Below are positions 6,634-43,645 of a DNA stretch of 64,000 nucleotides, piece by piece. Origin of the DNA: Alphaproteobacteria bacterium. Lineage in GTDB: Bacteria > Pseudomonadota > Alphaproteobacteria > Rs-D84. The DNA lies in NCBI GenBank assembly GCA_017642585.1, contig JAGCOR010000026.1, forward strand, positions 7,776-71,775, written 5' to 3'. The number at the start of each line of letters is the position of its first letter. Position 1 is the stretch's first letter. Made by a program: the position numbers and the translations under genes. A model generated the notes under the pieces. The model was not told where the DNA came from. It saw only the letters and a list, made by a program, of their open reading frames with translations, and ran no database searches.

Positions 6634-6707
6634 GCACTATGTTTTTATTGACATATTTATTATTTGTGTTATGCTATACGTAACAAGACAAACCAAAAGG
6701 AAATGAT

Positions 6708-7176: not shown

Positions 7177-8976
7177 TTATCCAACCAATTTCTTCCACAA
7201 AGATTTTTTAGCCTGTGGTTTCTTAAATGGTTTACGATGACGTGATGCAGTCGATGTGATGCGTTTTGCCTCAACATGTTGGGCATTTTTCTTTTTCACA
7301 TCGGTTGATGGCTGGAAAGCTTCCAATACATCATCGGTTTTAACGTTTTCCGCTGCAACGCGTTGAATTGAATATTGGTCTATGTTCATCAAACTGTCAT
7401 CACCAACGATAACAATTTCTGTTCCAAATTCTTTTTCCATAGATGCCAATTCAGCACGTTTTTGATTCAACAGATAAATCGCAACATCACTTGGAACCGT
7501 CATAATGATTTTCTGGGCAGGTTTTGCCAACAGTTTTTCCTGTAAATGACGGAACAATATAATGGATGCAGTTTGAATACTTGGAACGACACCTGCCCCC
7601 ATACAGTGTGGACATACGACATACGAAGATTCAATAAAGCTGCTGCGCAATCTTTGACGAGACAACATCAAAACACCAAATGCATTGATTTTTGCAACCT
7701 GGGTTCTGGCGCGGTCGTGTTTCATAACTTCGCGCATTTTTTGTTCCAATTTACGATTATTCTTTTCATCTTCCATATCGATAAAATCAATCGCAACGAT
7801 ACCAGCCAAATCACGCAAACGTAATTGCAAAGCGATTTCTTCTGCCGCTTCCAAATTTGTATTCAATGCGGTTTGTTCGATATCTTTTTCTTTTATCGCA
7901 CGGGATGAATTAACGTCGATTGTAACCATAGCTTCTGTTTGGTTAATAACAATAGAACCACCAGATGGCAAAGTTACATATGGACCATGTAAACCTTCCA
8001 ATTGTTTTTCAATGCCTGCTTTGGTCATCAAAGGTACAGCCGCATCTTTGTATTGCACCAATTGTTTACGTGGTGCGCGACCATACATTTGTTGAAAATA
8101 AGATTTAGCTTCATTGAAAACTTCATCACCTTGGACATACATCACATCGTCTTTATCTGCGATAAAATCACGAACAACACGACGCAATAATGAATCTTCG
8201 GTGTGAATTGTTACAGGCGCAACAGATTCCAAAGTTGTTTTACGAATATCATTCCACAGGGACGTCAAATAATCGTAATCTTTTGTGATTTCTTCCGCTT
8301 TGGCATCCATAGCCGCAGTTCTTAAAACCACTGTCATACCCTTTGGTATTTTCAAAGTGTGCAATATTTCACGCAATCTGGCACGTTCCGCTTTGTCAGA
8401 TATTTTCTTTGAAACACCGTAACTGTTACGTTTTCTGGAATTAGGCATCAACACAGCAAAACGACCCGCCAATGACAAATAAGTTGTCATAGACGCACCC
8501 TTTTGACCGCGTTCTTCTTTGACACCTTGGATTAACAAAATTTGTTTTGGTTTGATAACATCTTGGATTTTGAATTCGTGAGCACGTTTCAAAAATTCTT
8601 TATTATCTTCACCGGCACTGCGATCATCGTATTCTGCGACTTCGTCTTCTTCATCATTCGGATCATCGTCATCATCAACGATATTGGCATGAGCCAATTC
8701 AATCAATTTTTTCTTTTGTTCAGGTGTAACCTGGTAATAATCTGGATGAATTTCAGAAAACGGCAGAAATCCGTTTTTCCCAGTTCCATAATCTACAAAA
8801 GCTGCCTGAAGTGACGGTTCAACACGAATAACCTTGGCCAGATAAATGTTCCCTTTTATCTGCGGTTTTGTTGTTGTTTCTACGTCAAAATCAGACACTC
8901 GGCTTGTGGCGGCGTCCACCACCACCACCCGGGTCTCTTCTGGATGGACCCCATCTACATATATCTTTTTTGACAT
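7177..8976 (-). CDS. rne: ribonuclease E (catalytic half only, with an acidic S1-region insertion)
   Basis: N-terminal MSKKIYVDGVHPEETRVVVVD..FVDYGTGKNGFLPFSE RNase E/G signature; acidic DDDDDPNDEEDE insertion of the kind reported in alphaproteobacterial RNase E (recalled, not verified); 599 aa without the long scaffold tail. Confidence 0.9.
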   Translation of the reverse strand: MSKKIYVDGVHPEETRVVVVDAATSRVSDFDVETTTKPQIKGNIYLAKVIRVEPSLQAAFVDYGTGKNGFLPFSEIHPDYYQVTPEQKKKLIELAHANIVDDDDDPNDEEDEVAEYDDRSAGEDNKEFLKRAHEFKIQDVIKPKQILLIQGVKEERGQKGASMTTYLSLAGRFAVLMPNSRKRNSYGVSKKISDKAERARLREILHTLKIPKGMTVVLRTAAMDAKAEEITKDYDYLTSLWNDIRKTTLESVAPVTIHTEDSLLRRVVRDFIADKDDVMYVQGDEVFNEAKSYFQQMYGRAPRKQLVQYKDAAVPLMTKAGIEKQLEGLHGPYVTLPSGGSIVINQTEAMVTIDVNSSRAIKEKDIEQTALNTNLEAAEEIALQLRLRDLAGIVAIDFIDMEDEKNNRKLEQKMREVMKHDRARTQVAKINAFGVLMLSRQRLRSSFIESSYVVCPHCMGAGVVPSIQTASIILFRHLQEKLLAKPAQKIIMTVPSDVAIYLLNQKRAELASMEKEFGTEIVIVGDDSLMNIDQYSIQRVAAENVKTDDVLEAFQPSTDVKKKNAQHVEAKRITSTASRHRKPFKKPQAKKSLWKKLVG

Positions 8977-9199
8977 TTAATAATCCTTTTACGTTATGGG
9001 TGTACGAAATGGACATGACACGTTCCCATGGGGCATCCACGCCCATGCCAAGGATGCATGCAATGGTAACCAACAGCACGACTCGCATCATAGTAAAAAG
9101 TGATAACACAAACACTATATTACCCCATCTTATACAACTTGTATAAGATAACAGATGCAATATATAAAGGCAAGTTTTTTTATTTTTGGAAAATAAATT

Positions 9200-10192
9200 T
9201 TATTGGGCTGATAATTTTTTCTGTTTGGCTTCTTCTAACCAACGTCTCATTCTGGCACCCAACCAATGTTCGTATATAAAGAACAAGCCACCCAAACCAA
9301 TCAAAGGCAATACATAATAAATAATTCTGTATGCCAATAAAGCACCGAATATGCTGGCTTTATCCACACTGTCCGGCAAAGCGACCATAAACACAGATTC
9401 AAACACACCTATGCCACCTGGGACCTGGCTGAAAGTACCCGCCGCCATAGCGATTACATACAGCCCGATAAACACAACAAAAGGCATATCTATGTATGAA
9501 TGAATACAAAAATACAGAACCAACCCCGCACAAACACCATCTGCAATACCCAAAATAGTTTGAATTAACGCGGTTCCAAATGAAGGTATTTTGAATTTCA
9601 TTGTTGACCCAATATGAATATTTTTATCACAGAACATCACTGTCAATGCATAATAAGCCAACAACATAGATAAACAAACTATGAACAAAGTGTTCAATCC
9701 TAATGAAGCACCCGCAGATTGAGCCAAAACATCACTGGGGACTAAAAAATACCCAACTATCGCGATTGCGGCATACCCAAGGAAGAAAGTAAAGCCAGAA
9801 AAAGTCAACATTTTAATAATATCTGCCGCTGGCACACGCCAACGTGTATATAAACGGTAACGAATTGCCCCACCACTGACCAGGGCATTACCAGCATTAT
9901 TACTGATTGCAAAACCCAACATACCGGCCAACATCCATTTCCACCAAGAAACTTTGCGACCAACATAATCAAGGGCCAAAAAATCATACAAAGACAAAGC
10001 CAGATATCCAGCCAAACAGGCAAAACAAGCAAAAACCAAATTTATAAATGGGATATTCCACAAAGCACGTGCAATATCCATCAAAGAATAATTTCTTAAT
10101 TGCCAATACAGCATTCCTGCAGCCAGCACAAAGAATAAAATCCCAGCAAAACTGACCAGTTTCTTAAATATGCGTTTAGTTCTAACAGACAT
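9200..10192 (-). CDS. lysylphosphatidylglycerol-synthase-TM-like / flippase-like membrane protein (UPF0104)
   Basis: 330 aa polytopic membrane protein; pattern resembles the LPG_synthase_TM family. Confidence 0.5.
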   Translation of the reverse strand: MSVRTKRIFKKLVSFAGILFFVLAAGMLYWQLRNYSLMDIARALWNIPFINLVFACFACLAGYLALSLYDFLALDYVGRKVSWWKWMLAGMLGFAISNNAGNALVSGGAIRYRLYTRWRVPAADIIKMLTFSGFTFFLGYAAIAIVGYFLVPSDVLAQSAGASLGLNTLFIVCLSMLLAYYALTVMFCDKNIHIGSTMKFKIPSFGTALIQTILGIADGVCAGLVLYFCIHSYIDMPFVVFIGLYVIAMAAGTFSQVPGGIGVFESVFMVALPDSVDKASIFGALLAYRIIYYVLPLIGLGGLFFIYEHWLGARMRRWLEEAKQKKLSAQ

Positions 10193-10313
10193 ACCTTTTC
10201 TCTTATGGGGGAAATCATAGCAACATACGAAATAAAAATCAAATCAAATAAATTACTGTTTGGTTTTACACTGTTTTTATGATAAAATATACACAAAACA
10301 AAGGAGAGTTGTA

Positions 10314-11438
10314 ATGCCTAAAGATGTGGAACCCAAAGAAAGTGTTTTTGATATTTTTATCCAGGATATGTTGAACCCGAATATCAGTTCCATTGACGAT
10401 TCAATTTGTGCCAGAATTGCAAAAGATTTCACAGCATTGATTCGTCAAAACCCCGACCCAAAACCATATATTAAAACATGTGCAGAACGGAACCCAGACA
10501 AAGAAAACGTTAAACGTTTATGGCAGCTATATCAAGAATTGGAAAAAAAGCCAGATGCTAAATTCAATGAATTTTTTAATTTCATCAGCCCTTTGTTTGA
10601 AGAATATGTAGACGACGACGAAAGGGGTTGTATTGATATGATTGGAAGTCGTCGCAAACAAAAACTATTCAGTGAAAAAACCCAATTGATGATATGTAAA
10701 ACAATTCTTCGTAAGGGATATTACAGTGGTCGCCCAGAAGAATCCACTATACTTGAAGCGATCGCCCTGAATCCATATTCTTCTACGGAAGATAAAGTAA
10801 TGGCTGCAAAGCGTTTACGTTCACCAGATATCGCACGAAAAGCAATAGAGGCTTTGGAAGCAGAACGGGATGCCGAATTGGCAAAAGATTTCACAAGCGA
10901 ACCCCAGCTTCGTGCAACATGCCGTAAATTTTGGGACTTATATGATGCTTTGAATCGATTGGATCCAGATTATTTTAATGAAGTATCCCCAGGTTTTAAT
11001 ATTGAGAAACTTAGAGATTTTGGATTTGAATACGTAGAACAATTTAAACAATCTTTGGTAGATCGTGCATTAGAAGCAGAACGGTTGGCAAAAGAACAAG
11101 AAAGCAAAGTACAAGCTCAAGATCAACAAATTGAAAAATTAAATGGACAATTAAAGGCAGAAATCAAGGAAAAAGAAGATTACAAAGCAAAATTAGATAC
11201 TGCATTAAAAGAAAAAGCCACATTGGAAAAACAACTGCGCGATGAACAAAACGCACGTACCAGATTGGCAAATCAATTAGATGAAGTCGAAAAGAAGTTA
11301 AGAGCGGAAAAGAACAAAGCAGTAAAATTCAAGGATGCAGCCGCGGCATTGGAAACCGGCTGGGGCAGCAAGAAAGGCATTGAAGCATTCAAGAAAGAAA
11401 TCGCCGAAGCCTACAAAGACGAAACTTATCAAATCTAA
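10314..11438 (+). CDS. hypothetical coiled-coil protein
   Basis: C-terminal 120 aa heptad-rich (EKLNGQLKAEIKEKEDYKAKL...); likely start MPKDVEPKE at 10314 (the ORF track starts at 10260). Confidence 0.45.
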   Translation: MPKDVEPKESVFDIFIQDMLNPNISSIDDSICARIAKDFTALIRQNPDPKPYIKTCAERNPDKENVKRLWQLYQELEKKPDAKFNEFFNFISPLFEEYVDDDERGCIDMIGSRRKQKLFSEKTQLMICKTILRKGYYSGRPEESTILEAIALNPYSSTEDKVMAAKRLRSPDIARKAIEALEAERDAELAKDFTSEPQLRATCRKFWDLYDALNRLDPDYFNEVSPGFNIEKLRDFGFEYVEQFKQSLVDRALEAERLAKEQESKVQAQDQQIEKLNGQLKAEIKEKEDYKAKLDTALKEKATLEKQLRDEQNARTRLANQLDEVEKKLRAEKNKAVKFKDAAAALETGWGSKKGIEAFKKEIAEAYKDETYQI

Positions 11439-30438: not shown

Positions 30439-30781
30439 AAAAACATCTTATCAAATTGGTTTATTTTCTGAATTTTTAGCACGCTGGTATTTGCGCTTTC
30501 GTGGATATCATATTTTAAAAAGTCGATATGTTACTGGCAAAAACACTAATCGTGCAGAAATTGATATAATCGCAAAACATAAAAACACTATTGTTTTTAT
30601 CGAAGTAAAATCACGACAAAGTATTTCTGCGGCATGGGATGCGATTACTCCAACCCAATCGGCCAGATTACGTCGTGCCGCAGAAACTTTTCTTATAAAT
30701 TCACATTGGACAGGTGATGCAAGATTTGATGTGATAATTGTTTGCGGTCATAAAATATATTGGTCCAAAAACGCAATTTAA
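30428..30781 (+). CDS. YraN/UPF0102 family endonuclease-like protein
   Basis: MRSKKTSYQIGLFSEFLARWYL...GKNTNRAEIDIIAKHKNTIVFIEVKSR pattern typical of UPF0102; start at the internal ATG 30428. Confidence 0.65.
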   Translation: MRSKKTSYQIGLFSEFLARWYLRFRGYHILKSRYVTGKNTNRAEIDIIAKHKNTIVFIEVKSRQSISAAWDAITPTQSARLRRAAETFLINSHWTGDARFDVIIVCGHKIYWSKNAI

Positions 30782-31038
30782 TTTTTTATAACTGCACTTT
30801 TTATCAATGTGACATCTTCTTTGATACCGTCTATTTTTAATTGTAATTGTCCTATACCCGATTCAAGAATCGTGGTTCTGTTTTCTAATGATGTTATTCG
30901 CTGGTCTTGGCGTTCTAATTCGTTAAGTGAAGAATCTTGACGTGCAACCCAATAAATTGCTCCTGTGATAACAGCAATTAAAAACCAACCATCACGAATA
31001 ATCTCTAAAAAATTACTTATTTTCTGTTGTTTTTGCAT
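30778..31038 (-). CDS. small membrane-anchored coiled-coil protein (phage module, function unknown)
   Basis: One TM helix (WFLIAVITGAIYWVA) then a coiled coil; last gene of the phage-like operon. Confidence 0.35.
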   Translation of the reverse strand: MQKQQKISNFLEIIRDGWFLIAVITGAIYWVARQDSSLNELERQDQRITSLENRTTILESGIGQLQLKIDGIKEDVTLIKSAVIKN

Positions 31039-31040
31039 AT

Positions 31041-31241
31041 TTATGTTGGGTTATTCCCTTTGTTTATTAAATTTTCTATGTAATGAACCAATGCACTTTG
31101 CGCTGCCCACCAACGCAAATCATTGTCAGTTATGTTTTGCCCCACCGTTCGTTCAATGGTCAAAGAACGCAGATGTTTTAAAACACATTGCCCATCAATG
31201 CTGGCAAACGTTCTGGCGTATTGTTTTTCCAATTCAGACAT
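31041..31241 (-). CDS. hypothetical small protein (phage module)
   Basis: 66 aa ORF tightly packed between the portal gene and the next gene. Confidence 0.3.
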   Translation of the reverse strand: MSELEKQYARTFASIDGQCVLKHLRSLTIERTVGQNITDNDLRWWAAQSALVHYIENLINKGNNPT

Positions 31242-31257: not shown

Positions 31258-32481
31258 TTATATTAACATTTCTTCGTGTGCCATTTGTGCAATCGGGGCA
31301 ACATATTTTAATTCAGCATCAGAATGCAAAGATATTTGTTCTATCAATCCGCGTCTGGATAATATTTGCAATCCACGTTCACACATAGGCTTTATAAATT
31401 CGTGTAACAGGCGACCATATGTAGCACCTAAAATTCTAACCATATCTGAATTGCGTGCCAATATTTCAGTGGCGGTCATTTCTTTGTCTGATAACAACCC
31501 CAACCTGTCCGCCAATAAAGTGTGTCTGATTCTGTCGCGTAAATCGCGTAATACAATTTGCGAAACATCAAAATCAGCACCACTGGATAATGGGGTTAAA
31601 CCTGAACTGCCCACAGCTTTTGGAATAATTGCCCCCGGTGTTAAATTTATATTGGACAGATTTATAACACCATCATCATCCGCCTGCCATATACCGCTGA
31701 CCGCGATAGTCGCATTTTTTAAAACTAATTCCACAACTTTGTTGGCTGTTTTGATATCTGGCAACGCGCGCAATACTGGTCCACGACCATATGTTTCACC
31801 ACTGACCAAAGACCAACGGAAAATTATATATGGGTTGGTTTCAAATGTTCCACGTGAAACAATATTGTTTTCAAAATCGCCACCTACATCCAACCACGCA
31901 GTAAAATCATTTCCATCTAAACATTGAACCAATTTAATTGGTGTGTCTGGGTTGTTTTTTATAGTTTCCTGTAATTGTTTTGGAAAAACAAAATGCGGAT
32001 ATTTTTCAACAATTTCATTTGCAGGCATAGATGTCGTATGAAATACCATTCCCGGCAACAAAGCGATATTTGTCATAGGAATCGCAGTGAATGAAAATGC
32101 AGAATCTGCACCGATTGGATTTTCTGCCATAAACAAACAAGCAGTTCCCAACACAACCAAATCAATATAGCATTGATGAATTGTCGTATAAAAATTTGAA
32201 TCATTTAAATGTGCACGAAAAACAGATGTTGCATGTTCTGCATCTGGGGATAAATCACTTTCTTTGATAAAATTCACCCACAAAGATTCAGGTGGGGTCA
32301 ACAAAGAATACATAGAAGCAGCCAAATTATCCACTGCATCTGCCGCAGTCGCGTCAAATAAAGTTGCTGATTCTGTATCGTCCATTGGAATTGTGTATCG
32401 CATTGCTGTTTTCCAACGATTTAACCATATTTCGCGTTCATTTAATGCGCGTTTATATAATTGCATAAGATTTTTTTGCAT
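31258..32481 (-). CDS. T7 gp8-like head-to-tail connector (portal) protein
   Basis: RWKTAMRYTIPM...NLAASMYSLLTPPESLW and GETYGRGP align by eye with T7 gp8 (CAQYTIPSL...NLASKLMLALFPMQTW, GESYGRS, as recalled); 407 aa. Confidence 0.7.
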   Translation of the reverse strand: MQKNLMQLYKRALNEREIWLNRWKTAMRYTIPMDDTESATLFDATAADAVDNLAASMYSLLTPPESLWVNFIKESDLSPDAEHATSVFRAHLNDSNFYTTIHQCYIDLVVLGTACLFMAENPIGADSAFSFTAIPMTNIALLPGMVFHTTSMPANEIVEKYPHFVFPKQLQETIKNNPDTPIKLVQCLDGNDFTAWLDVGGDFENNIVSRGTFETNPYIIFRWSLVSGETYGRGPVLRALPDIKTANKVVELVLKNATIAVSGIWQADDDGVINLSNINLTPGAIIPKAVGSSGLTPLSSGADFDVSQIVLRDLRDRIRHTLLADRLGLLSDKEMTATEILARNSDMVRILGATYGRLLHEFIKPMCERGLQILSRRGLIEQISLHSDAELKYVAPIAQMAHEEMLI

Positions 32482-32498: not shown

Positions 32499-33347
32499 TT
32501 ATATTTTGAAATCTGTGTTTGCATGTATCAGTTTGTTGCCAAACGTCACAGGTCTGATTGTGCCAGGATTCATCATCAAAGCCCCTGCAACCGCATCCAA
32601 ACCGTCATCATGTTCTGTGGAACCAATCGGTGTCCAAGCCAACATTTCTGACAACAACATTGTTTGTTTAATTTTGTTGTGCATAAATAACCTGCCCGTG
32701 TTTAACACAGGTTCTATGGCATTTAAAATTCTGGTTTCTTTCTTGGTGTGATTTGCAATTTGAACTATGTTTATTTGCAGATTATGTTTATCGGCAACAC
32801 GTCGCATTATTTCAGGCAACGCATTACCCAGTCCGTTTATTTCTATCCCCACACGATATATTTTATGTTTTTGCATAAAATCTATAATTTTGTCGCATTG
32901 GGTAGACAAGGGATGTAAATCATCATCGTCTACAACCATATACATAATGTCATGAACAAAAACGGTTTTGTTTTTATCATCCCTGTACACTAATACACAT
33001 ACACTGCCATCTGCCCTGTTGTATCCAGATGACGGATCCCAATACATTGAAACCCCAGTTATACAATGTTGCCCGATTCGACATAATTTTGTATCGAAAT
33101 CATCATCATAAAACTGTAAAGCCCCTGGATCCAAATAAACACGTTCTTCGGGGACATATTCCAACATCATTTGGGCTGAAAAATGTCTGGGGCCGACAAT
33201 TCTTTCCAGTTCATGTATTTTTTCGATTGGAAACATTTCTGGCCATGCTGAATTTCCAGCACTGTCAACAATAGGTATCTTTAATTGTTTATAGCCACTT
33301 AAAAAATGTATTGAATTATTAAAATTTTCGTTTAATCTAAAAGACAT
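32499..33347 (-). CDS. large terminase subunit, C-terminal nuclease fragment (T7 gp19-like)
   Basis: SAWPEMFP, GPRHFSAQMMLEYVP, MYWDPSSGYNRADGSVCVLVY and HDDGLDAVAGAL match recalled T7 gp19 IWPALYP, GKAGFTLQFMLNPNL, VIDPSGRGKDETGYAV and HDDRLDALALGI; possible own start MSFRL at 33347 with a GGAG Shine-Dalgarno (track ORF extends to 33527). Confidence 0.75.
   Translation of the reverse strand: MSFRLNENFNNSIHFLSGYKQLKIPIVDSAGNSAWPEMFPIEKIHELERIVGPRHFSAQMMLEYVPEERVYLDPGALQFYDDDFDTKLCRIGQHCITGVSMYWDPSSGYNRADGSVCVLVYRDDKNKTVFVHDIMYMVVDDDDLHPLSTQCDKIIDFMQKHKIYRVGIEINGLGNALPEIMRRVADKHNLQINIVQIANHTKKETRILNAIEPVLNTGRLFMHNKIKQTMLLSEMLAWTPIGSTEHDDGLDAVAGALMMNPGTIRPVTFGNKLIHANTDFKI
33270..33282. repeat. 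left copy of a 12/13-bp direct repeat AATAG(G)TATCTTT flanking the cassette inside the terminase gene
   Basis: Near-identical copy at 36659-36670; both lie at the homologous break point of the terminase coding sequence. Confidence 0.4.
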
Positions 33348-34896
33348 GAACTTTACTCCAAAAACATTACCAATGAACCTGGAAGCAGAACAAGCAGTTC
33401 TGGCTGCCGTTTTTACCAGCAGTCGTGCACTGGAATTGATATCTGATTTCTTGTTGCCGGAACATTTTTCACACCCTGCGCACCAAGAAATATACAGATA
33501 TGCCATGCGTGTATTTGCAACTGGCAAGATTGTTGATGTAATTTCTGCAAAAAACTATTTAGAACAACAGGGCGCATTGGAAAGTGTTGGTGGACCTGAT
33601 TATTTGACTAAATTAGCATCTGCGGGTGCAACGGTTGTAAATGTTGAACATTATGCCCGTATAGTTTTTGATAATGCCCGCCGTCGTGATTTAATCAATA
33701 TTGGTCAATCTATTGTTGATAACGCATATCAAGAAGATTTGGATGTAACCGTTGATAACCAGGTTGAAACTGCTGAACAGAAATTGTTTAATTTGGCATC
33801 TACTGGTCAATCTGAACAAAATATGGTATCTTTGGCCCAGGCATTAAAAGGTGCTTTGAAAGAAGCAGAATATGCCTATAAAGCCGAAGGCAAATTGTCA
33901 GGTTTAACCACAGGTTTGGATGAACTGGATAAATCTATCAGTGGTTTGCACCATTCCGATTTAATTATTATAGCTGGTCGTCCAGGTATGGGTAAAACCA
34001 CATTGGCTATGAATATTGCGTTTAATGCGGCCAATGCTATATACAACAAACGCGCAAATGATAAATACCAAGGCGCTGTTATATTCTTCAGTTTGGAAAT
34101 GTCCAACGAACAATTGGCGGCACGTGTTTTGTCATCTCAATCAAAAATACCTGCATCCAGAATTCGTGACGGTCATTTAACCGACGAAGATTTTATGACG
34201 ATGTCACAATATTCAGACGCCCTGTCAAAATTACCATTGGTTATTGATGATTCTGCTGATGTGTCTGTACCTATGATAAAAACCCGTGCACGCAGAATTG
34301 CCCGTAAATTCGGCGGGGTTGCATTAATTGTTATCGACTATTTACAGTTGATGAAATTGCCAGGCGGCAAAAGCAACGAAAACCGTGTGCAAGAATTGTC
34401 TGAAATCACCCGCAGTTTGAAAATCTTAGCAAAAGATTTGGATGTTCCTGTGATTACCCTGTCACAGTTATCACGTAGTGTTGAACAACGTGATGATAAA
34501 CGCCCGGTATTGTCAGATTTGCGTGATTCTGGTTCTATTGAACAGGATGCGGATATCGTTATGTTCACTTTCCGTGAAGAATATTATCTGGACGGACACG
34601 CACCAAGCAATAAATTATCCAGTAACGCATCTGAAAATTCTATGCAACATTACCACAATCGTCTTGAACAATCCAGAAACAAGGCGGATGTTATCATTGC
34701 TAAAAACCGTCATGGTAAACCAGAAACTGTGCATTTAAGCTTCTTTGGCGAATATTTCTTGTTCGATAATTTGGCACAATTTAATATGCAACCTGCCCCC
34801 CAGGATATGAACGAACAACCTGTATTTGCGCCAACACCATCACCTGACGAACAAGCGGATTCATCTGTCGGTGATGCACCTGACGACATGCTTTAA
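33346..34896 (+). CDS. dnaB: replicative DNA helicase (DnaB family) with a C-terminal acidic/Pro-rich tail
   Basis: N-terminal LEAEQAVLAAVF..., Walker A GRPGMGKTTLA, Walker B IVIDYLQLM, SRSVEQRDDKRPVLSDLRDSGSIEQDAD; embedded in phage DNA on the strand opposite the structural genes. Confidence 0.85.
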   Translation: MNFTPKTLPMNLEAEQAVLAAVFTSSRALELISDFLLPEHFSHPAHQEIYRYAMRVFATGKIVDVISAKNYLEQQGALESVGGPDYLTKLASAGATVVNVEHYARIVFDNARRRDLINIGQSIVDNAYQEDLDVTVDNQVETAEQKLFNLASTGQSEQNMVSLAQALKGALKEAEYAYKAEGKLSGLTTGLDELDKSISGLHHSDLIIIAGRPGMGKTTLAMNIAFNAANAIYNKRANDKYQGAVIFFSLEMSNEQLAARVLSSQSKIPASRIRDGHLTDEDFMTMSQYSDALSKLPLVIDDSADVSVPMIKTRARRIARKFGGVALIVIDYLQLMKLPGGKSNENRVQELSEITRSLKILAKDLDVPVITLSQLSRSVEQRDDKRPVLSDLRDSGSIEQDADIVMFTFREEYYLDGHAPSNKLSSNASENSMQHYHNRLEQSRNKADVIIAKNRHGKPETVHLSFFGEYFLFDNLAQFNMQPAPQDMNEQPVFAPTPSPDEQADSSVGDAPDDML

Positions 34897-34964
34897 ATTT
34901 ATTTCTTGCCAAACTTATATTTTTTGACTATTATTTTGTCAACACATCTTCAAGGAGGTTTAAT

Positions 34965-35972
34965 ATGGCACAAGAAGAAATCATATTTCCTAATAACATA
35001 CGAAACATACGTGCTGCCAAGGGTATGAAAATGACCGAACTGGCCAGACGTGCCAATTTATCTTTGTCTGCTGTTTCCAAGATTGAAAAAGGCGTCAGAC
35101 GATTAAACCAAAAACAATTATTGAATGTGTGCAGCATATTGGGTTGCAAATTATCTGATATATTTATTCACGAATCAGATACTGTTGCAGATCAATGGCA
35201 AAACGAAATTAAACGCCGTTTGACTGACAATGAAAAAAGCGGTTTGAAAGTTTTCGGTTCTGGTTTGCGTAAAATCCGCCAACGTGCAGAAAAAACTATC
35301 GCAGAAACCGCGAAGGCTGCAAAAATGACATTGTCTGTTTATCATAAAATCGAAGTTGGTCAACGCGAAATTTATGAAAACGAAATTGAAGTTTTGGCAA
35401 AAACTTTTGGTTATACCACCGAACAATTATTTGATGAAATCGCAAATCTGTACAAGGCTGGCGAATTAACAAAACAAATCAACAAAGTTAAAGAACGCGT
35501 AAAATCTGTTTTGGAACCGGGTAATCCTGTATCTGGTTTGGACATCCAAGACGGTTTATATGGCGCACAATTATATGACAATGCCAGAAAAAAATTGGTT
35601 CCTGTGTTTGGAAAACCAAATGGCAAAGAAATTTCTTTGAAAAAATCAGACGAAAATATGATTGTCGCACCAAGTACATTGGAAGGTTTGGTCAGTGTTT
35701 ATGCTGTCGTTCCAAATGCAAAACGTTTGGGTGGTTTTATCCCAGAAACTTCTTATGTATTTGTTGATGCTGATTCAACACCAGAAGTTGGTGATTTGGC
35801 AATGTTCATTGATGCAGATTTTTCAAAAATGACATCTGATGATGTCGCATCTGCACAAATTGCCGTTGTGCGCCAGGATACACATGGTAAAAAATATGGT
35901 CATGTGTCCAATCCAGACGACAAAATCAATTATAAAACTATGCACAAAGTTATTATGATTGTAATGAAATAA
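34965..35972 (+). CDS. XRE-family regulator with two HTH domains and a degenerate CI/LexA-like C-terminal domain
   Basis: Two HTH_3-like segments (MKMTELARRANLSLSAVSKIEKG; KTIAETAKAAKMTLSVYHKIEVG); the C-terminal beta-rich domain lacks the S24 Ser nucleophile. Confidence 0.6.
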   Translation: MAQEEIIFPNNIRNIRAAKGMKMTELARRANLSLSAVSKIEKGVRRLNQKQLLNVCSILGCKLSDIFIHESDTVADQWQNEIKRRLTDNEKSGLKVFGSGLRKIRQRAEKTIAETAKAAKMTLSVYHKIEVGQREIYENEIEVLAKTFGYTTEQLFDEIANLYKAGELTKQINKVKERVKSVLEPGNPVSGLDIQDGLYGAQLYDNARKKLVPVFGKPNGKEISLKKSDENMIVAPSTLEGLVSVYAVVPNAKRLGGFIPETSYVFVDADSTPEVGDLAMFIDADFSKMTSDDVASAQIAVVRQDTHGKKYGHVSNPDDKINYKTMHKVIMIVMK

Positions 35973-35997
35973 CAATGTCAATTTGTAGGGGGGGCAT

Positions 35998-36663
35998 ATG
36001 CAACAACAAACCGCACATACGATTGCACAGCGTTTATTAAACCTTTATCGCCAAGCACATGTTATTAATGGTGGTTGGATGGCTGTTAACCAGGTTTTAT
36101 TGAACGAATCAAACGATCCCCGTGTCATAGAAGAACTTGAAAAATTGCCTACAGGAAAAAGGCTTGCTATGCATATCAGCAATTTAAAGTCTGGCAAAAC
36201 CCCTATGAACACCATTGATAAAGATTTATTGCCATACGGCGGTTTAATCATGGGTCAAGATACAATTATAACTTTAACGCCCGATGAATTAAAAGAGTTA
36301 CAAACCGCACTGGCATCTTTTGAACCAACCACCGAAGGATTAAACAAGATAAAAAAATTATCATGTGTTAAAAAATTCGGTAACGACTGGTTATACAGCA
36401 TCAAATCGGCATTAAACGACCACCCAGAAATAGCATCAAAATGGGCTGATGTTGTTCGTACAGAACGTGCTTATACTATGTGGAACAGTGCGCGCCAATT
36501 GATATCCGAAGATTTAACAGAACGTGACCGTGCCAGAATCCAGGTTGACATGCCAGATTTTGAAACATATTTACCTATGTTTGGCGAACCAGGCAAAGAA
36601 GTGTTGGCAAAACTGCGTACATTTATGTCTTCGGTTGCACCTGCTGTCAAATCTGATAAATAG
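35998..36663 (+). CDS. hypothetical protein (possible helicase-loader or accessory protein, speculative)
   Basis: 221 aa ORF, last gene of the cassette; its stop overlaps the terminase N-fragment stop. Confidence 0.35.
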   Translation: MQQQTAHTIAQRLLNLYRQAHVINGGWMAVNQVLLNESNDPRVIEELEKLPTGKRLAMHISNLKSGKTPMNTIDKDLLPYGGLIMGQDTIITLTPDELKELQTALASFEPTTEGLNKIKKLSCVKKFGNDWLYSIKSALNDHPEIASKWADVVRTERAYTMWNSARQLISEDLTERDRARIQVDMPDFETYLPMFGEPGKEVLAKLRTFMSSVAPAVKSDK

Positions 36664-37285
36664 TATCTTTGGTGTGTGGTGTCCCTATAAAAATCATTGT
36701 TCCGCGCGGGGATAAAATAAAATCTAATTCCCGTAATCTTTCACGAAGATTATTTCTTTTTTGCAAAGTGTTGCATGTATTTGGGACTTCTACGTCATCG
36801 CATATAATTAAATCAGATCTCATACCTGTTATATTTCCAGAAATTCCCTGACATATAACCGAAGGTTCCCTGATTCCTATAGGGCGTTTAATAGTAATTT
36901 TATGTGTTCCCCACTCTTTTTTGACATCAGGCAAAATATCACTGCACCACGGATGGTTTTCCAAAATATTTTTTACATGTGAAACCATACGCGATGACAA
37001 TCCAGATTCTGCTGACAATATCAATATTCTGGTTTCTGGTCGATAATATAATACACACGCTGCGAAAATCCCAACAACAGTTGATTTTCCAGAATGCCTG
37101 AACGCTGTCAATAATCCACGTCGCGGTTCATTATTAAAAACATCCACTAAAAATTCCAGTATCTGTTTATGGTGTTTCGGCGTTTCAAAACCCAAAATTT
37201 TATTCCAAGCATTTAAGAAATCAAAGGCTTCCGTAATCGTCAGATTGTTCATTGTCTGCTGTTTCTGTAACAGAACCATAATCAT
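36647..37285 (-). CDS. large terminase subunit, N-terminal ATPase fragment (T7 gp19-like)
   Basis: LTAFRHSGKSTVVGIFAACVLYYRPETRILILSAE, GISGNITGMRSDLIICDDVEVP and MIFIGTPHTKDTIY match recalled T7 gp19 [47 protein letters not shown] and VIYLGTPQTEMTLY; ends 3 codons after the conserved GTPxT motif. Confidence 0.8.
   Translation of the reverse strand: MIMVLLQKQQTMNNLTITEAFDFLNAWNKILGFETPKHHKQILEFLVDVFNNEPRRGLLTAFRHSGKSTVVGIFAACVLYYRPETRILILSAESGLSSRMVSHVKNILENHPWCSDILPDVKKEWGTHKITIKRPIGIREPSVICQGISGNITGMRSDLIICDDVEVPNTCNTLQKRNNLRERLRELDFILSPRGTMIFIGTPHTKDTIYQI
36659..36670. repeat. right copy of the direct repeat AATAGTATCTTT
   Basis: See 33270..33282. Confidence 0.4.
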
Positions 37286-37769
37286 TTATTAAATTTGGTA
37301 ATGCCTGGTCCAGAACATTAAGCAAATTATTATACAGCCCCAATACAGAACCTCCTGATAATTTGTCTTCTATTAACCCCAGCAAATAATTTATTTGATA
37401 CAATACATTGTTGTGTGTGTTTGCCCATTGACTTAAATCTATATTTATACTTTGAATATCATGCAACGCAGCGATTAAAAAATTAAAATCAGAATTCAAA
37501 TCTTCTGGGTCTATCTTTGCAGTCGGTTGATAATCGATTACTCTGGATAATGATATTTGCCGGAAAATATCTATTTGCGTTCCGTTTGCTGGTGCAGTTG
37601 CAAATACCACCAAACCACCATTAAAATCATTATCAGGGTTCACATCATATTGCGAATCATCTAAAACAACATTGTCTATCGCGACTTTAATATCTGCATT
37701 TTGAAAAAAAGGGAAATTAAAAACAAATTCCGTATCATTGCCATTTCCCGTATATGATATTTTATACAT
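37221..37769 (-). CDS. tail fiber N-terminal (tail-attachment) domain protein, T7 gp17-N-like stub
   Basis: MYKISYTGNGNDTEFVFNFPFF resembles T7 gp17 N-terminus VLTYQLDGSNRDFNIPFEY (recalled); only 182 aa, no receptor-binding region. Confidence 0.55.
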   Translation of the reverse strand: MYKISYTGNGNDTEFVFNFPFFQNADIKVAIDNVVLDDSQYDVNPDNDFNGGLVVFATAPANGTQIDIFRQISLSRVIDYQPTAKIDPEDLNSDFNFLIAALHDIQSINIDLSQWANTHNNVLYQINYLLGLIEDKLSGGSVLGLYNNLLNVLDQALPNLINDYGSVTETADNEQSDDYGSL

Positions 37770-37778: not shown

Positions 37779-38126
37779 CTATCCTGCTATTTTATCTATC
37801 TGCGACAGCCACTTTTTCAATAAATTAGGTTTTGTTGTTTTTATCTTTTTTAAATTTTCTATGCTTGTTTTATTTTTTTCATCATATGGTTGTGCAGTTT
37901 CATCACGCAATCTTTTTAATACCGCGTTTTCAGACAAACCATCACCAGCATTGCCAGACGCTCCGTATTTTGCGCGTTGTCCCGCCAATACTTTTTTTAT
38001 TAAATTATTTTTCGCTGTTTCATTTTCAGCCATTTGTTCCAATATTTTTTGACGTTGGTTGCCTGCTTTCTTCTTAGATTCTTGATAATCCAGAATTTGC
38101 GTTACGTCAGATACCAATTGTCCCAT
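37779..38126 (-). CDS. hypothetical lysine-rich protein (phage module)
   Basis: 115 aa ORF between tail tubular B and the fiber stub. Confidence 0.35.
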   Translation of the reverse strand: MGQLVSDVTQILDYQESKKKAGNQRQKILEQMAENETAKNNLIKKVLAGQRAKYGASGNAGDGLSENAVLKRLRDETAQPYDEKNKTSIENLKKIKTTKPNLLKKWLSQIDKIAG

Positions 38127-38144: not shown

Positions 38145-39857
38145 TTATATTGAATACCAACCCTCTGTAGTCACAGACAATATTGTCGCGCTTAATTGTT
38201 CACTGCTGGACAAAGTCCACAAAGGTTGAATTGTATCGGCCTGTATACCCAGCAAATTTAATGACAAATCCCCGCTGTAACCAAGGTTATCGTTTGAATA
38301 AACAACATTTGGTATTTCAATTCTGTAATCATTTGCAAATAATGTTTTTGTGTTTATCACACGCACAGATATTTTTCTGGTTCGTATTTTCTTTGGACAA
38401 TGTCCATTTACAACCATAGGCACAGCCGATATTTTATATGAAAAACCATATTGGGTTGCGTCTTTCAAACAAGATGCATCAAATTTTTCAAGATAATGAT
38501 TGCCTTTTCTTTTTACAATAACATAAGTTGAATCATCTAATACACAAACATATTTGAATTCGCCGTCTGTTTTATATGTTCCCCACGCAGAAATATCTGT
38601 ATTTGGATATTTATGTAATACGGCCATATATCCGCTTTGCATAACAACAAACAATTGATGTGTGTTTTGGTTATAAGAAACACTGACCGGATTTTGCATA
38701 AGATGTTTTGCATACAAACATAAATCTGTAGCGTTGTAATTTTCACCCAATGCATCTAAATCTAATTCACGAATATCTTTGCCTGATTCAGAAATGAAAA
38801 CTGTGCTACCTTCTATTTGCTGTGGAGGCAAATATCTTGTCGCAATACTGCCGACAGATGTATGTTGTTTAATATTGACATTTGATGGTGTTAACGGGGA
38901 ATTTGAAATCGACCATTCGCCCACAGATGTCAAAATCTGCAACGAATCACTGCTGACAATTGTACAAATTTGATGGTGTTGTGCAGATAATAAAGCTGCA
39001 TAAATTGCTTCATCATCTAAACCTGTGCCAGAATCAAAATTATGAAAATCAGAAACTTTGGACATCCATATACAATTCGGCAAAGCATGTGTTCCGCCAA
39101 AAACTAATCTGTTTTGATGGAAAGATACACATGATGGCCATCCGCGTCTGTTGTTAAACACAGATTCATACCAATCGTATATTGGACCTTGGGCTAATGT
39201 AAAATTACCATTTGTATAAACAGTAACAGCCGTAGCACTTTGAACGCTGGCAACAACCCATTGTCTGTTGTCCACATATAATCTTTCACCCACAGCATTT
39301 TCAGGCCAAAAATCTGCATTTGTTGTAAATGTAGCGTAATTGGTATCTATGTCGCTGCTGGACATTGTTATAGTGATATTTTTCGAATCTTCAAAACGCG
39401 TAAACGGTATATTTACACTGGCATCTGAATTGGAAGAAAAATTAAAATCAGTAAAACCAAAACCACTGGCTGTTTTTGTAAATATCACAGGTTTATAATC
39501 TGGATGAACAAAAAATATAGAATTAAATCTTTGTGCATATTGTAATTTTGCCAAATCAGCACGTTTCCACGGCGCAATCATTGTCGTTATTTTGGTATCA
39601 TTACAATATATATCCATAGAAATATTGTATATAACCAACAAATATTTTTCTGATTCTGTAATTGGAAACGGCACAATTATTGCATCTTGGTATGTATTAC
39701 CTATGCTTTTTAACCCACTGCGTCTGGTTAAACCGCCTGATTTTAATACATCTGTATTTTCCAACACAGATAACCCGTTTGCATTATTCAATGCGTAAAA
39801 TTCAGAAGACACTTCCCCACAAGCAAATGAATTTTGTGTTTTAATAAAATTACCCAT
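38145..39857 (-). CDS. tail tubular protein B (T7 gp12-like), shortened
   Basis: FHQNRLVFGG...SKVSDFHNF resembles the gp12 FFFRNRLGFLSG...AKYFNFY segment (recalled); sits downstream of a gp11-like gene; 570 aa. Confidence 0.55.
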   Translation of the reverse strand: MGNFIKTQNSFACGEVSSEFYALNNANGLSVLENTDVLKSGGLTRRSGLKSIGNTYQDAIIVPFPITESEKYLLVIYNISMDIYCNDTKITTMIAPWKRADLAKLQYAQRFNSIFFVHPDYKPVIFTKTASGFGFTDFNFSSNSDASVNIPFTRFEDSKNITITMSSSDIDTNYATFTTNADFWPENAVGERLYVDNRQWVVASVQSATAVTVYTNGNFTLAQGPIYDWYESVFNNRRGWPSCVSFHQNRLVFGGTHALPNCIWMSKVSDFHNFDSGTGLDDEAIYAALLSAQHHQICTIVSSDSLQILTSVGEWSISNSPLTPSNVNIKQHTSVGSIATRYLPPQQIEGSTVFISESGKDIRELDLDALGENYNATDLCLYAKHLMQNPVSVSYNQNTHQLFVVMQSGYMAVLHKYPNTDISAWGTYKTDGEFKYVCVLDDSTYVIVKRKGNHYLEKFDASCLKDATQYGFSYKISAVPMVVNGHCPKKIRTRKISVRVINTKTLFANDYRIEIPNVVYSNDNLGYSGDLSLNLLGIQADTIQPLWTLSSSEQLSATILSVTTEGWYSI

Positions 39858-39875: not shown

Positions 39876-40394
39876 TTAAAATCTTGAATTTATCAAAGAA
39901 AAATTATCTATGTTTGATTGATTTAAAATCGTGCTGTCTATGAATTTTGCAGATTGATATTCTGATTCATACAAAATATTCATCATTTTAAAGATATTCA
40001 TATCTCCAATCAAAGGAACACAAAATTCCACAGCCAATTTAGATGCAACCAATGATGCAAAATAGCCCGGAAAATTTTCTGGTTCTGTTTTTACAATCGC
40101 AATAATTTCTATTTTTTCGGCTGCGGCAATTATCTTGTTTCCAACGATTTGACCAGGATGTTTAATTATGCGTAATACATTGGTGGGTATAATAAAATCA
40201 CCATTTGAATCTTTGGTTAATTCTATGTTTTGTAATGCAAAATGCCATGGAAATGTCGACAACAAAGTATCAACAACCGAATCAAATAAACTTCTGGCCA
40301 ATTGAGCAGGTGCAGAATCTTCACGCAAAGATTGAATTGGCTTTTCGCCTAACTTTAACAAAGCCATTGAACATAAATCTATTTTTGTAAACAT
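39876..40394 (-). CDS. tail tubular protein A (T7 gp11-like)
   Basis: IDLCSMALLKLGEKPIQSLRED..AQLARSLFDSVVDTLLSTFPWHF versus recalled T7 gp11 [41 protein letters not shown]; 172 aa. Confidence 0.6.
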   Translation of the reverse strand: MFTKIDLCSMALLKLGEKPIQSLREDSAPAQLARSLFDSVVDTLLSTFPWHFALQNIELTKDSNGDFIIPTNVLRIIKHPGQIVGNKIIAAAEKIEIIAIVKTEPENFPGYFASLVASKLAVEFCVPLIGDMNIFKMMNILYESEYQSAKFIDSTILNQSNIDNFSLINSRF

Positions 40395-40407: not shown

Positions 40408-40440
40408 GTAAAAAGGGGCCGTATAAAACGGCCCGGTTAT
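40408..40440 (-). terminator. strong rho-independent terminator downstream of the capsid gene region (T-phi-like position)
   Basis: CCGGGCCGT TTTAT ACGGCCCC TTTTT on the minus strand. Confidence 0.5.
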
Positions 40441-40734: not shown

Positions 40735-41562
40735 TTAGGCTGCATCATCATCACATTTAATACGAACGATACCTTCTGCATCAATCAACACAGCGCCTTG
40801 GGACATACTGTTGCTGATGAAATGCGCAGCACGTTCGCCATGCCATGTAATATCAGTTTTAACTTCTTGACCACAGGCATGACCAATGCTGGATGCATGA
40901 TAAATGAAACAATCACGATCATCTGTGTTTGCCAAAGGCAAAGAATTGCACAGAATCCAATTGATACCCAACCATCTTCTTGATTCACAACCATCAACCA
41001 AAGGTGTTGAACCACCGACATAATCAGCAGATACAAATTCATTCATACCCATCAATTCATTCCATTGATGAACACCAACGACTGCATATCTGCGACCGTC
41101 ATCTGGAACGTCATTTTCGTTTAATTTTTCAACAGCACTCATAATCAATGCTTTTGTTAAACCTGTTGAATAATCGCCAACATATTGGGTTGCATTGTTC
41201 ATCGCAGCGATGATTAATTCATCTGTTTTACGACCCAATGCATATGCACCGGCTGATGCAACAACACGACGTTCATCAACATTGGTTTTCAATTCATCCA
41301 AAGCATCAATCCAATCGCCTGCGTAATAATCTTGCAAAGTGCATTCCACAGGTGTGTGATTCAAATTCATCACTGGAACAATACCATGACGTGATTTAGT
41401 ACTGGCAATTCCTTTGCCAACTTTTTGGAAAGTTGTTGAAGTTCCAACAACGCCAGATTTACTGCGAATTGTGGAACGCAATTTTGTGCCCATTTGCTGA
41501 TAAGCCAAATGAACATCTGCTTCAAATTGTTTTATAAACACTTGATCTACAGATAAAGACAT
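40735..41562 (-). CDS. major capsid protein (T7 gp10-like)
   Basis: VFIKQFEADVHLAYQQMGTKLRSTIRSKSGVVGTSTTF versus recalled T7 gp10 LFLKVFGGEVLTAFARTSVTTSRHMVRSISSGKSAQF; start MSLSV at 41562 with an AAGGA Shine-Dalgarno (track ORF extends to 41655). Confidence 0.65.
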   Translation of the reverse strand: MSLSVDQVFIKQFEADVHLAYQQMGTKLRSTIRSKSGVVGTSTTFQKVGKGIASTKSRHGIVPVMNLNHTPVECTLQDYYAGDWIDALDELKTNVDERRVVASAGAYALGRKTDELIIAAMNNATQYVGDYSTGLTKALIMSAVEKLNENDVPDDGRRYAVVGVHQWNELMGMNEFVSADYVGGSTPLVDGCESRRWLGINWILCNSLPLANTDDRDCFIYHASSIGHACGQEVKTDITWHGERAAHFISNSMSQGAVLIDAEGIVRIKCDDDAA

Positions 41563-41793
41563 AAAAAATCCTTTTTGTTTTTCTTGTAAAAAATTACGCC
41601 AAAACGGCAACATATTTTGAAAAATGGTTATACGAAAAATCGCGCCATAAAACAAAATTCAAAAGTCAGGGTCCACAAAATGGATTATCCAATAAAAGAT
41701 TCAGTCAGACACAAAATCTGACTGAAAATTTTATCAAAAAACCCCAAAACACTTATGCTTTGGGGTTAAAAATGATACATAATTAATGTATTA

Positions 41794-42218: not shown

Positions 42219-42875
42219 TTATGAATATAATTTTTTAAATCCGTTTTCTATTTTTCTTACATACTCCGGATCTTGATCACGCCAATATTTTGGATTCTTC
42301 ATCATGTTGCGTAATTCATCATCAGTTAAATTTTCATCACCACTTTTGTTTGTAAAAACTTCTGGTTCCATTGATTGCATCATCTTGTATATGCCTTGAA
42401 TTCCCTGGGGTGTAGAGCATAGTTCATCAAACGCAGATGCAGGTAAAAACTTTTCACCAAATGCATTTATCTCTTTCAATGCATCATTCATTTTTTGTGT
42501 TGAACCAAAAAAATTTTTTAATTCATTTATTGCATTTGTTTCATTTTGCATTTCAAATAAATTTTTTATCGCAGGTTGTAAAAAATCTTCTGCAATTTGA
42601 TAAATTGTTTCAACTTGTTTTGATGTTAAACCAATTTCATGAAATTTTTCACGCACCGATTCGTCATCAAATAAACTGTTTGTTGGATATTCTGATGCGT
42701 TATCCGGTACACCAATTGCGCGATTAAATTTTTGTTTAGTTGAATCATCACTATCCGCAGATGGTACAGATATCATCGTTCCCATCTTTTTTTCTAATTC
42801 ACAATACGATTTAATCAACGCAGATGTATTTAATTCACCATTTTCATTTAGAAATTTTTCTGGAACCTGTTCCAT
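42219..42875 (-). CDS. capsid scaffolding protein (T7 gp9-like)
   Basis: Acidic; C-terminal ELRNMMKNPKYWRDQDPEYVRKIENG versus recalled T7 gp9 SEMIKAMSDPRYRTDANYRRQVEQKV; position upstream of capsid. Confidence 0.55.
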   Translation of the reverse strand: MEQVPEKFLNENGELNTSALIKSYCELEKKMGTMISVPSADSDDSTKQKFNRAIGVPDNASEYPTNSLFDDESVREKFHEIGLTSKQVETIYQIAEDFLQPAIKNLFEMQNETNAINELKNFFGSTQKMNDALKEINAFGEKFLPASAFDELCSTPQGIQGIYKMMQSMEPEVFTNKSGDENLTDDELRNMMKNPKYWRDQDPEYVRKIENGFKKLYS

Positions 42876-43085: not shown

Positions 43086-43532
43086 TTATAAATAAAATAA
43101 GATATCATCTATCTCTGCAATATAACCACGTGACATGGCCCATTGTGGCATAACATCTGTGTGATGAAATTTAGTAGCACCAAAAACCAAATCTCGCAAA
43201 GCGCCATTCATCATTTTTTGAACAACGCGTAAACACATTTGAAATTTTTTATCTTTTGCATTTACATTTAATAAATGATTTCGTTTTGAATTATCATTTA
43301 ACACTTCAAAAATATTTGCATCATTCGCAATATCTTCAAAAGATTTATCATATTTTATATGTATGTTATAAATCATAGAAGAAAAAGCTTCGACCAAATG
43401 CAGAGATTGTGCCAAAGTTTCTGCGTAAACAATGCGCGATAGTTTATATAATACAATTTTTGTATTATCCGGATTTTCAATCAAAGTTAATTGCATGTTA
43501 AGACCTGTTTGGGTTATAAAAAAAACGCACAA
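43086..43532 (-). CDS. hypothetical protein (first gene of the phage-like operon)
   Basis: 148 aa ORF with no motif. Confidence 0.35.
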   Translation of the reverse strand: MCVFFITQTGLNMQLTLIENPDNTKIVLYKLSRIVYAETLAQSLHLVEAFSSMIYNIHIKYDKSFEDIANDANIFEVLNDNSKRNHLLNVNAKDKKFQMCLRVVQKMMNGALRDLVFGATKFHHTDVMPQWAMSRGYIAEIDDILFYL

Positions 43533-43645
43533 AAAATGTGCGTCATGGAACCAGAATAAAAAAAATCCGCATCTAAATCGCGGACAGAATCTTTATTCTT
43601 GATGTTCATCATTATATCACAAATCGACTATAAAGTCAAGACCAT

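Follow-up and report, generated by a model that had tools for sequence, protein, structure and literature searches.

The question raised by this locus is whether a large terminase gene that is interrupted by genes on the opposite strand still encodes a terminase. The locus lies in a 64,000-nt stretch of DNA from an alphaproteobacterium of the Rs-D84 lineage; this whole stretch is called the window, and coordinates are window positions. The part studied, 32499–37285, had been read (the original prediction) as a large terminase gene split in two by an opposite-strand cassette flanked by a short direct repeat, and three explanations were offered: a terminase made of two polypeptides, an insertion scar, or an excisable intervening element. 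To our knowledge, and in the literature searched, the large terminases (TerL) of tailed phages are single polypeptides. Our results make it likely that the locus represents an ancient, fixed fission of a T7 gp19-type terL, giving a two-polypeptide terminase within a domesticated podovirus-like gene cluster of Candidatus Enterousia and its relatives (Rs-D84).

Two collinear parts of one large terminase

Protein families were assigned by profile searches of Pfam, PHROGs, and NCBIfam, by a sequence-profile search of the PDB, and by structure comparison of AlphaFold models. The two terminase open reading frames (ORFs), TerL-N and TerL-C (Table 1), matched the same profile, phrog_38, at successive positions: 274–458 for TerL-N (E 2e-43) and 483–707 for TerL-C (E 6e-41). 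Between them, on the opposite strand, are dnaB, a regulator with two helix-turn-helix (HTH) domains, and a gene of no known family, and their coordinates and families agree with the original prediction.

The longest TerL-N ORF begins at 37285 (212 aa), but translation probably starts at the ATG at 37252 (201 aa). It contains Walker A (FRHSGKS), Walker B (CDDVEV), and motif III (GTPH..TIY) and ends with GTPHTKDTIYQI, also given as FIGTPHTKDTIYQI, followed by the stop codon. The GKST, CDDVEV, and GTP elements of the ASCE ATPase core were invariant both in an alignment with intact homologues and across 68 species. TerL-C has the RNase H-like nuclease of T7 gp19-type large terminases: it matched PF22530 (T7 terminase RNaseH-like domain) with 41.1 bits (cut-off, 27), and its acidic nuclease residues D316, E381, and D459/D460 were invariant in the alignment with intact homologues. 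The PDB profile search matched the TerL proteins of PhiV-1 (8dgc) and T7 (gp19, 4bij) with E ~1e-39. An AlphaFold model of the concatenated halves had a pLDDT of 77.5, and its best structural match was again 8dgc, the PhiV-1 TerL (E 1.6e-26). The two ORFs do not make up a single polypeptide: TerL-N stops after TIYQI, and TerL-C has its own ATG 3.3 kb away with a GGAG Shine-Dalgarno sequence (33359–33356) placed in dnaB codons 4–5. This Shine-Dalgarno sequence is GGAG or GGGG, 8 nt 5′ of the ATG. Judged by these matches, TerL-N and TerL-C correspond, in order, to the two halves of a single T7 gp19-type large terminase. The original prediction was to fall if the fragments were not contiguous parts of one terminase; they are collinear with intact homologues.

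In the AlphaFold model the break is a predicted disordered loop (residues 213–224, pLDDT <50) directly after the motif III strand. The nuclease core (Pfam Terminase_6C, WDPS motif) begins at about residue 100 of TerL-C, and ~95 residues precede it; ATPase-only crystal structures align over ~275–300 model columns, well beyond residue 212. The model thus places the cut within the ATPase domain, where the Rossmann core meets the lid, rather than between the two domains. Because the break follows motif III and the nuclease core starts later, the N fragment would correspond to the Rossmann core, and the C fragment to the lid/linker plus the nuclease. The earlier description of ATPase and nuclease halves is therefore approximate, since the cut comes after motif III and TerL-C carries the ~95 residues before the nuclease core. 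A split intein or trans-splicing was considered and rejected for want of room: 2–19 variable residues follow TIY, and ~14 precede the conserved FLxGY.

The junction and the short direct repeat

The plain concatenation of TerL-N and TerL-C was aligned with ten intact homologues (468–505 aa, ~41% identity) from other alphaproteobacterial chromosomes, and no residue was lost or duplicated relative to them. TerL-N ends at the family motif GTPHTxxTIYxx. TerL-C begins in a short variable linker, followed by the conserved FLxGYxxLKIPI..GxSAWPE, and the sequence becomes homologous again at FLSGYKQL, which is 5′ of the repeat copy inside TerL-C.

Both copies of the repeat are present where the original prediction had placed them (Table 1). 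They are not at the homologous junction, however, because the FLSGYKQL sequence at which homology resumes is 5′ of the TerL-C copy. Joining across the repeat (..KDTI-VDSAGN..) is in frame, as had been claimed, but the product is not a restored terminase: the join deletes 29 residues, including Y210, L228, L234, and P237, all four of which are invariant in split and intact proteins.

These results bear on the proposal that the cassette is an excisable element, comparable to the sigK skin element or a phage switch, in which recombination at AATAG(G)TATCTTT in particle-producing cells restores terL. The presence of the repeat at both cassette ends and the in-frame join are in its favor, and a cell already bound for lysis might do without dnaB. 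The length of the match also argues for it, to the extent that a one-error match of at least 12 nt, the length found in the window, occurred in only 2.25% of random segment pairs taken from the window at the same spacing as the two junction regions. The repeat is absent, however, from 70-odd other species with the same architecture; in most relatives the best one-error direct repeat between the junction regions is 8–9 nt, which is the null level. It is degraded to an 11-nt match even in L009, a horse-faeces metagenome-assembled genome (MAG) that is 99% identical to the window. In the 5-kb region, short imperfect direct repeats make up at least 60 families. Judged by these comparisons, the repeat is a chance resemblance of the K-D-T-I and K-I-P-I codons, not clearly beyond chance, and its use as an att site is rejected on the comparison over 77 loci together with the null distribution.

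Several other observations point away from excision. Searches of Pfam, PHROGs, and NCBIfam found no recombinase domain in the three cassette genes, and there was no structural match to one either. None of 2208 database homologues was a fused TerL of this clade. The fused DNA junction had no exact match in JGI metagenomes, a weak control since the native junction had only one and assemblies show the majority state. TerL-C also looks independently translated, since its N-terminus, ATG, and Shine-Dalgarno sequence are conserved, and the damage that the join does to the protein weighs on the same side. A split kept in relatives without the repeat was the very outcome that, according to the original prediction, would speak against excision. 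We find an excisable element scarcely credible.

Conservation of the split among relatives

Relatives were sampled at ~20 kb per genome. A relative is encoded in 236 species-representative genomes; the best 80 of these are Candidatus Enterousia and gut Alphaproteobacteria MAGs, with horse, ruminants, mice, birds, and termites as hosts, and all 80 carry a separate TerL-C gene. In the protein database, C-fragment proteins of 279–284 aa formed ~75 clusters with 57–100% identity. Gene order was determined by tblastn of nine window proteins against all sampled loci and was judged only where the locus was long enough. The junction was resolved in 77 loci, including the window, most of them from species-representative genomes.

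With three exceptions (L055, L072, and L061), TerL-N in the covering loci was followed by Unk221 (the gene of no known family), HTH, and DnaB, all three on the opposite strand, and these by TerL-C and portal. This architecture, together with the overlap of the dnaB and TerL-C ATGs in the sequence CATG, was found in 74 of the 77 loci. TerL-C starts with ATG in the same proportion (74/77) and has exactly 282 codons in 67 of 71 species. The convergent end, between Unk221 and TerL-N, is equally tight, with gaps mostly of −63 to +7 nt. In L055 and L072, which are mouse-gut MAGs labelled Muribaculaceae and probably mis-binned, dnaB is inverted so that it has the same direction as terL, and no portal gene follows TerL-C (variant spans, 8395–10843 and 8379–10840). 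L061, from a termite-gut MAG, has a 260-nt spacer between dnaB and a 314-aa TerL-C (9734–9995). These exceptions are informative rather than contrary.

The ratio of nonsynonymous to synonymous substitution (dN/dS) was calculated by the Nei-Gojobori method for the window against five relatives. It was 0.02–0.07 for TerL-N, 0.06–0.13 for TerL-C, and 0.09–0.16 for DnaB, and synonymous sites (dS) were saturated between subclades. The halves contained no frameshifts, and ORF length was constant. Walker A, Walker B, and motif III did not vary among 68 species; the tail that follows TIY was 2 to 19 residues long. Identity across species was 74–89% for portal, 69–88% for TerL-N, 73–93% for capsid, and 58–81% for DnaB. 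Rs-D84/Enterousia genomes are 0.75–1.0 Mb with ~90% coding density (PMC12306168); because these genomes are below 1 Mb and so densely coding, useless DNA should have been lost.

A dead insertion scar would require that the terminase was inactivated and that its fragments persist through overlap with dnaB signals or through incomplete decay. The first 15–20 codons of TerL-C could indeed be held by an embedded dnaB promoter rather than by protein function, and two species have a large deletion in the cluster. The constraint extends, however, over all 282 and 200 codons of the two halves at dN/dS of 0.02–0.13 with dS saturated; the catalytic motifs are invariant in 68–71 species without frameshifts or change of ORF length, and the whole structural cluster is co-conserved in genomes smaller than 1 Mb. 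A dead scar is therefore very improbable. Of the insertion scar first proposed, an ancient insertion survives, and decaying halves do not. The proposal of a split two-polypeptide terminase gains support from fixation in 74 of the 77 loci, purifying selection, retained catalytic motifs, and the conserved ATG and Shine-Dalgarno sequence.

The same constraint might reflect separate exaptation, with the TerL-N ATPase and the TerL-C nuclease each kept for a distinct role outside packaging and no terminase formed. Such a reading draws on the position of the cut inside the ATPase domain, which makes reassembly demanding, on the fact that no small terminase was identified, and on the half of the species that have no fibre gene at all. 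It fits poorly with the constant proximity and co-conservation of both halves with portal, scaffold, capsid, and tail-tube genes, with the portal gene directly following TerL-C, and with the retained invariance, on either side of the cut, of residues that do not vary among intact terminases. We consider separate exaptation improbable.

The comparison with L009 also revealed a tract, 35998–37285 in the window and 5204–6458 in L009, in which Unk221 is only 87% identical as against 97–99% elsewhere. The proportion of synonymous differences (pS) from L009 was 0.28 for TerL-N and 0.07–0.09 for dnaB and TerL-C. This region looks like a local recombination tract.

The cassette genes and the dnaB/TerL-C overlap

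The DnaB protein passed the NCBIfam equivalogs NF006606 (592 bits; cut-off, 540) and TIGR00665 (497; cut-off, 385) and scored below the cut-off of the phage_DnaB model TIGR03600 (408 vs 499). By these scores dnaB is a host-type, not a phage-type, helicase gene, and the genome size of less than 1 Mb makes a second dnaB unlikely. The HTH protein is conserved in length, with 50–85% identity across species. An S24/LexA-like assignment of its C-terminal domain was rejected: there was no Pfam match at E 10, and PDB matches covered the HTH domains only. The promoter of the HTH gene is conserved (consensus TTGCCA-N17-TAttAT), and the TTGAC-N9-GTCAA palindrome over its −10 region, a putative operator, is exact in 49 of 71 species. 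Unk221 had no family match and no significant structural neighbor.

The cassette ends abut the break points, as originally described. At one end the Unk221 stop codon (36661–36663) overlaps the 3′ end of TerL-N by 17 nt. At the other, the ATGs of dnaB and TerL-C stand head to head in CATG at 33345–33348. Synonymous-site entropy was calculated over 71 species for six genes (TerL-C, dnaB, HTH, Unk221, portal, and TerL-N). It was 0.09–0.21 in TerL-C codons 1–18, compared with a gene mean of 0.71, and no comparable dip was found in the other five genes. On the dnaB strand, the consensus of the 71 species is an A-tract followed by TTGAAw-N16-TAnnnT-N7-ATG, and this promoter-like block overlaps TerL-C codons 1–16. 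A sigma-70-like dnaB promoter thus appears to lie inside the first ~15 codons of TerL-C, with the transcription start at or next to the ATG. Because dnaB codons 1–12 are conserved at the amino-acid level (96%) and show normal synonymous variation, the CATG start of dnaB is translated. The dnaB mRNA would then be leaderless, which fits both the missing dnaB Shine-Dalgarno sequence and the invariant CATG.

The surrounding T7-like cluster

The terminase halves are part of a structural cluster of roughly 9.5 kb (Table 1). Its order on the minus strand is endolysin, scaffold, capsid, tail tubes A and B, p115, fibre stub, TerL-N, cassette, TerL-C, portal, Bbp19-like protein, and the 86-aa protein. 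All the structural genes match T7 or podovirus families. About half of the species have the fibre stub, and in the others it is missing with no gap in its place; in the window it overlaps the longest TerL-N ORF by 65 nt.

Table 1 Features of the split-terminase locus, in window coordinates
Feature	Position	Strand	Description
86-aa protein	30778–31038	−	Hydrophobic N-terminal stretch
Bbp19-like protein	31041–31241	−	PF25181
Portal	31258–32481	−	T7-type; PF12236, E 8.5e-80; directly after TerL-C
TerL-C	32499–33347	−	282 aa; disordered linker head, lid/linker region, RNase H-like nuclease domain
Repeat copy 1	33270–33282		AATAGGTATCTTT; codes for K-I-P-I in conserved TerL-C; judged a chance similarity
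dnaB promoter	33298–33345	+	Putative, sigma-70-like; A-tract, −35 TTGAAT (33311–33316), 16-nt spacer, −10 TAATCT (33333–33338), 7 nt to ATG
dnaB	33346–34896	+	Chromosomal-type replicative DNA helicase; NCBIfam equivalogs
HTH-gene promoter	34906–34942	+	TTGCCA-N17-TATTAT; palindrome TTGAC-N9-GTCAA over −10
Two-HTH regulator	34965–35972	+	335 aa; two XRE-type HTH domains; PF01381, E 1e-17, two stretches
Unk221	35998–36663	+	221 aa; clade-specific, all-alpha; last cassette gene
TerL-N	36647–37285	−	Rossmann-core ATPase fragment of T7 gp19-type large terminase; phrog_38 match
Repeat copy 2	36659–36670		AATAGTATCTTT; codes for K-D-T-I at TerL-N end; judged a chance similarity
Fibre stub	37221–37769	−	182 aa; only the T7 tail-fibre N-terminal (adaptor) domain
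p115	37779–38126	−
Tail tube B	38145–39857	−
Tail tube A	39876–40394	−
Major capsid	40735–41655	−
Scaffold	42219–42875	−	T7 capsid assembly
Endolysin	43086–43532	−
Cluster leader	43515–43640	−	Strong promoter cTTGACTtt, TG-extended TATAAT, then two tandem intrinsic terminators before the first gene

The cluster has head, tail, packaging, and lysis genes and contains no integrase and no phage replication or lysogeny module; its sole replication gene is the host-type dnaB. It is inherited vertically at a fixed place, as indicated by the lplA flank in both subclades, the 77 loci, and dN/dS of at most 0.13. These are features of gene transfer agents (GTAs), but homology to a recognised GTA family (RcGTA-like, BaGTA, or VSH-1) was not found. 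The nearest cultured phages are T7-like, with TerL identity of only 25–28%, and the IMG/VR matches, of 4–14 kb, are not free phage genomes but provirus calls made on these same chromosomal clusters. The cluster looks like a domesticated, GTA-like element.

Other Alphaproteobacteria have compact chromosomal clusters with an intact terL and a different gene order (L005, 1–12874; L007, 1779–12546), which hold portal, Bbp19, scaffold, capsid, tail tube, TerL, hydrolase, and holin genes. One such cluster has a weak GTA_holin_3TM match, and one adjoins the S10 ribosomal operon and has an S24 repressor. Split and intact clusters together look like a wider family of T7-like domesticated elements.

Expression signals

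The leader of the cluster is conserved in 22 species, and its terminator stems change in sequence and keep their pairing. A TTGAC-N6-GTCAA palindrome (43618–43639) covers the −35 region and spacer of the cluster promoter, with at most one mismatch in 16 of the 22. The half-sites common to this palindrome and that of the HTH-gene promoter hint that the two-HTH protein may regulate both. In an Rfam search the only matches were two tRNAs, and the leader contained no known RNA. The placing of terminators behind a promoter suggests, by analogy with lambda PR′-tR′ or the Caulobacter GTA (CcGTA), that the cluster is controlled by anti-termination. In CcGTA, GafZ anti-terminates and binds between −35 and −10, and the promoter is followed by terminators (PMC11150451). 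Strong intrinsic terminator-like hairpins also flank the major capsid gene (40416–40434 and 41700–41767, minus strand), so that the downstream genes would need read-through as well.

No terminator was found between TerL-N and the convergent cassette, and no synonymous-site dip marked a conserved antisense promoter for TerL-C inside dnaB, HTH, or Unk221. A promoter-like site at 35981–35952 (minus strand) was rejected as a TerL-C promoter because it is not conserved. A generic sigma-70 scan was uninformative (65 sites vs 74 expected). Because neither an internal promoter nor a separating terminator was detected, we infer that read-through from the cluster promoter, running antisense over the cassette, is the most likely source of TerL-C and portal expression.

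A more elaborate possibility, which we hold to be rather unlikely, is that the nesting serves as a regulatory device in a new podovirus-type GTA of gut symbionts with reduced genomes. TerL-C and portal, its distal essential genes, would be expressed only when an anti-terminated polymerase crosses the regulator and dnaB in antisense; this read-through would occlude the dnaB promoter and silence the regulator, making commitment to particles and lysis bistable and coupling it to helicase shut-off.

Proposed origin and operation of a two-polypeptide terminase

The explanation that we prefer, an ancient fission fixed as a two-polypeptide terminase, can be set out as follows. A 3.3-kb block of dnaB, the two-HTH regulator, and Unk221 would have lodged, on the opposite strand, in the variable disordered loop after motif III. 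Conservation suggests that TerL-N and TerL-C are now made as separate polypeptides, with TerL-C translated from an ATG and a Shine-Dalgarno sequence of its own. Presumably the two polypeptides come together non-covalently as the packaging enzyme. The first ~15 codons of TerL-C, which encode the disordered linker, would double as the promoter of a leaderless dnaB mRNA.

Several points weigh against this reading. The packaging activity of the two polypeptides is argued from conservation and from adjacency to portal. The cut inside the ATPase domain makes a non-covalent link mechanistically demanding, and we know of no precedent for a non-covalent core-lid link in a TerL. Two loci, L013 (6413–6711) and L063 (~5905–6664), have a deletion from the capsid gene to approximately TerL-N residue 145 and nonetheless keep the cassette, a full-length TerL-C, and portal; these deletions reflect either recent decay, which would mean that the cluster is dispensable at least sometimes, or an assembly artefact. 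The read-through model leans on the absence of detectable internal signals, and a weak antisense promoter-like sequence, TTGACA-N17-TATAAG, is found in the dnaB-HTH spacer of the window's subclade. Finally, no anti-terminator protein was identified.

Comparison with known systems

The literature searched yielded no description of a split TerL, of a T7-like GTA, or of phage elements in Enterousia, and no prior description of the architecture of this locus. The original observation of that architecture was largely correct, apart from the repeat and excision.

Interrupted genes that are restored by excision, or that act as switches, include the sigK skin element of Bacillus subtilis, the Anabaena nifD element, and the Listeria comK prophage. 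The present locus resembles them in that kilobases of unrelated genes interrupt a gene whose halves are both on one strand. It differs in having no recombinase and no conserved att-like repeats, in the damage that excision would do to the protein, in the translation signals of each half, and in an insert that holds an essential gene. A closer parallel is provided by genes split into two functional polypeptides, such as the T4 topoisomerase genes for gp39 and gp60 and the nrdA gene of Aeromonas phage Aeh1, which was split by a homing-endonuclease gene. These share with the terminase a cut in a tolerant loop, separate translation, presumed reassembly, and evolutionary stability of the split. Here, however, the insert lies on the opposite strand and carries a regulator and a host replication gene rather than a homing endonuclease or mobile element, and the target is TerL, for which no split was found described.

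The opposed transcription units recall face-to-face promoter switches, namely pR/pL of coliphage 186 and prgQ/prgX of pCF10, in which, as here, overlapping units are not separated by a terminator and the overlap includes a repressor gene. The overlap in our locus would be 3.3 kb and would include an essential host gene, and interference may follow from this arrangement. If the dnaB promoter is as proposed, the locus provides an unusually clear example of dual coding, in which a phage-derived gene carries the promoter of an essential gene within its codons.

With RcGTA and CcGTA the cluster shares a compact set of head, tail, packaging, and lysis genes without integrase, vertical inheritance (lplA), and purifying selection, and with CcGTA it also shares a promoter followed by terminators, which in CcGTA is subject to anti-termination by GafZ (PMC11150451). 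It differs from both in belonging to a T7-like podovirus lineage rather than to the HK97-type siphoviruses. No RcGTA homologues were found in it, the only link being the weak GTA_holin_3TM match in the intact relatives. That genomes smaller than 1 Mb keep a ~9.5-kb T7-like cluster as conserved as their helicase suggests that animal-gut symbionts carry a domesticated, possibly GTA-like, element not described before.

The terminase itself is closest to T7 gp19 and PhiV-1 TerL (4bij and 8dgc), with which it shares the family, the fold, Walker A and B, motif III, the RNase H-like nuclease, and a position adjoining T7-type portal, scaffold, and tail-tube genes. It differs from them in being encoded by two genes with 3.3 kb of opposite-strand host genes between them and in its total length of ~480 aa compared with 586. 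A natural split of TerL, maintained under selection in dozens to hundreds of species, offers a test of how much linkage the core, lid, and nuclease need.

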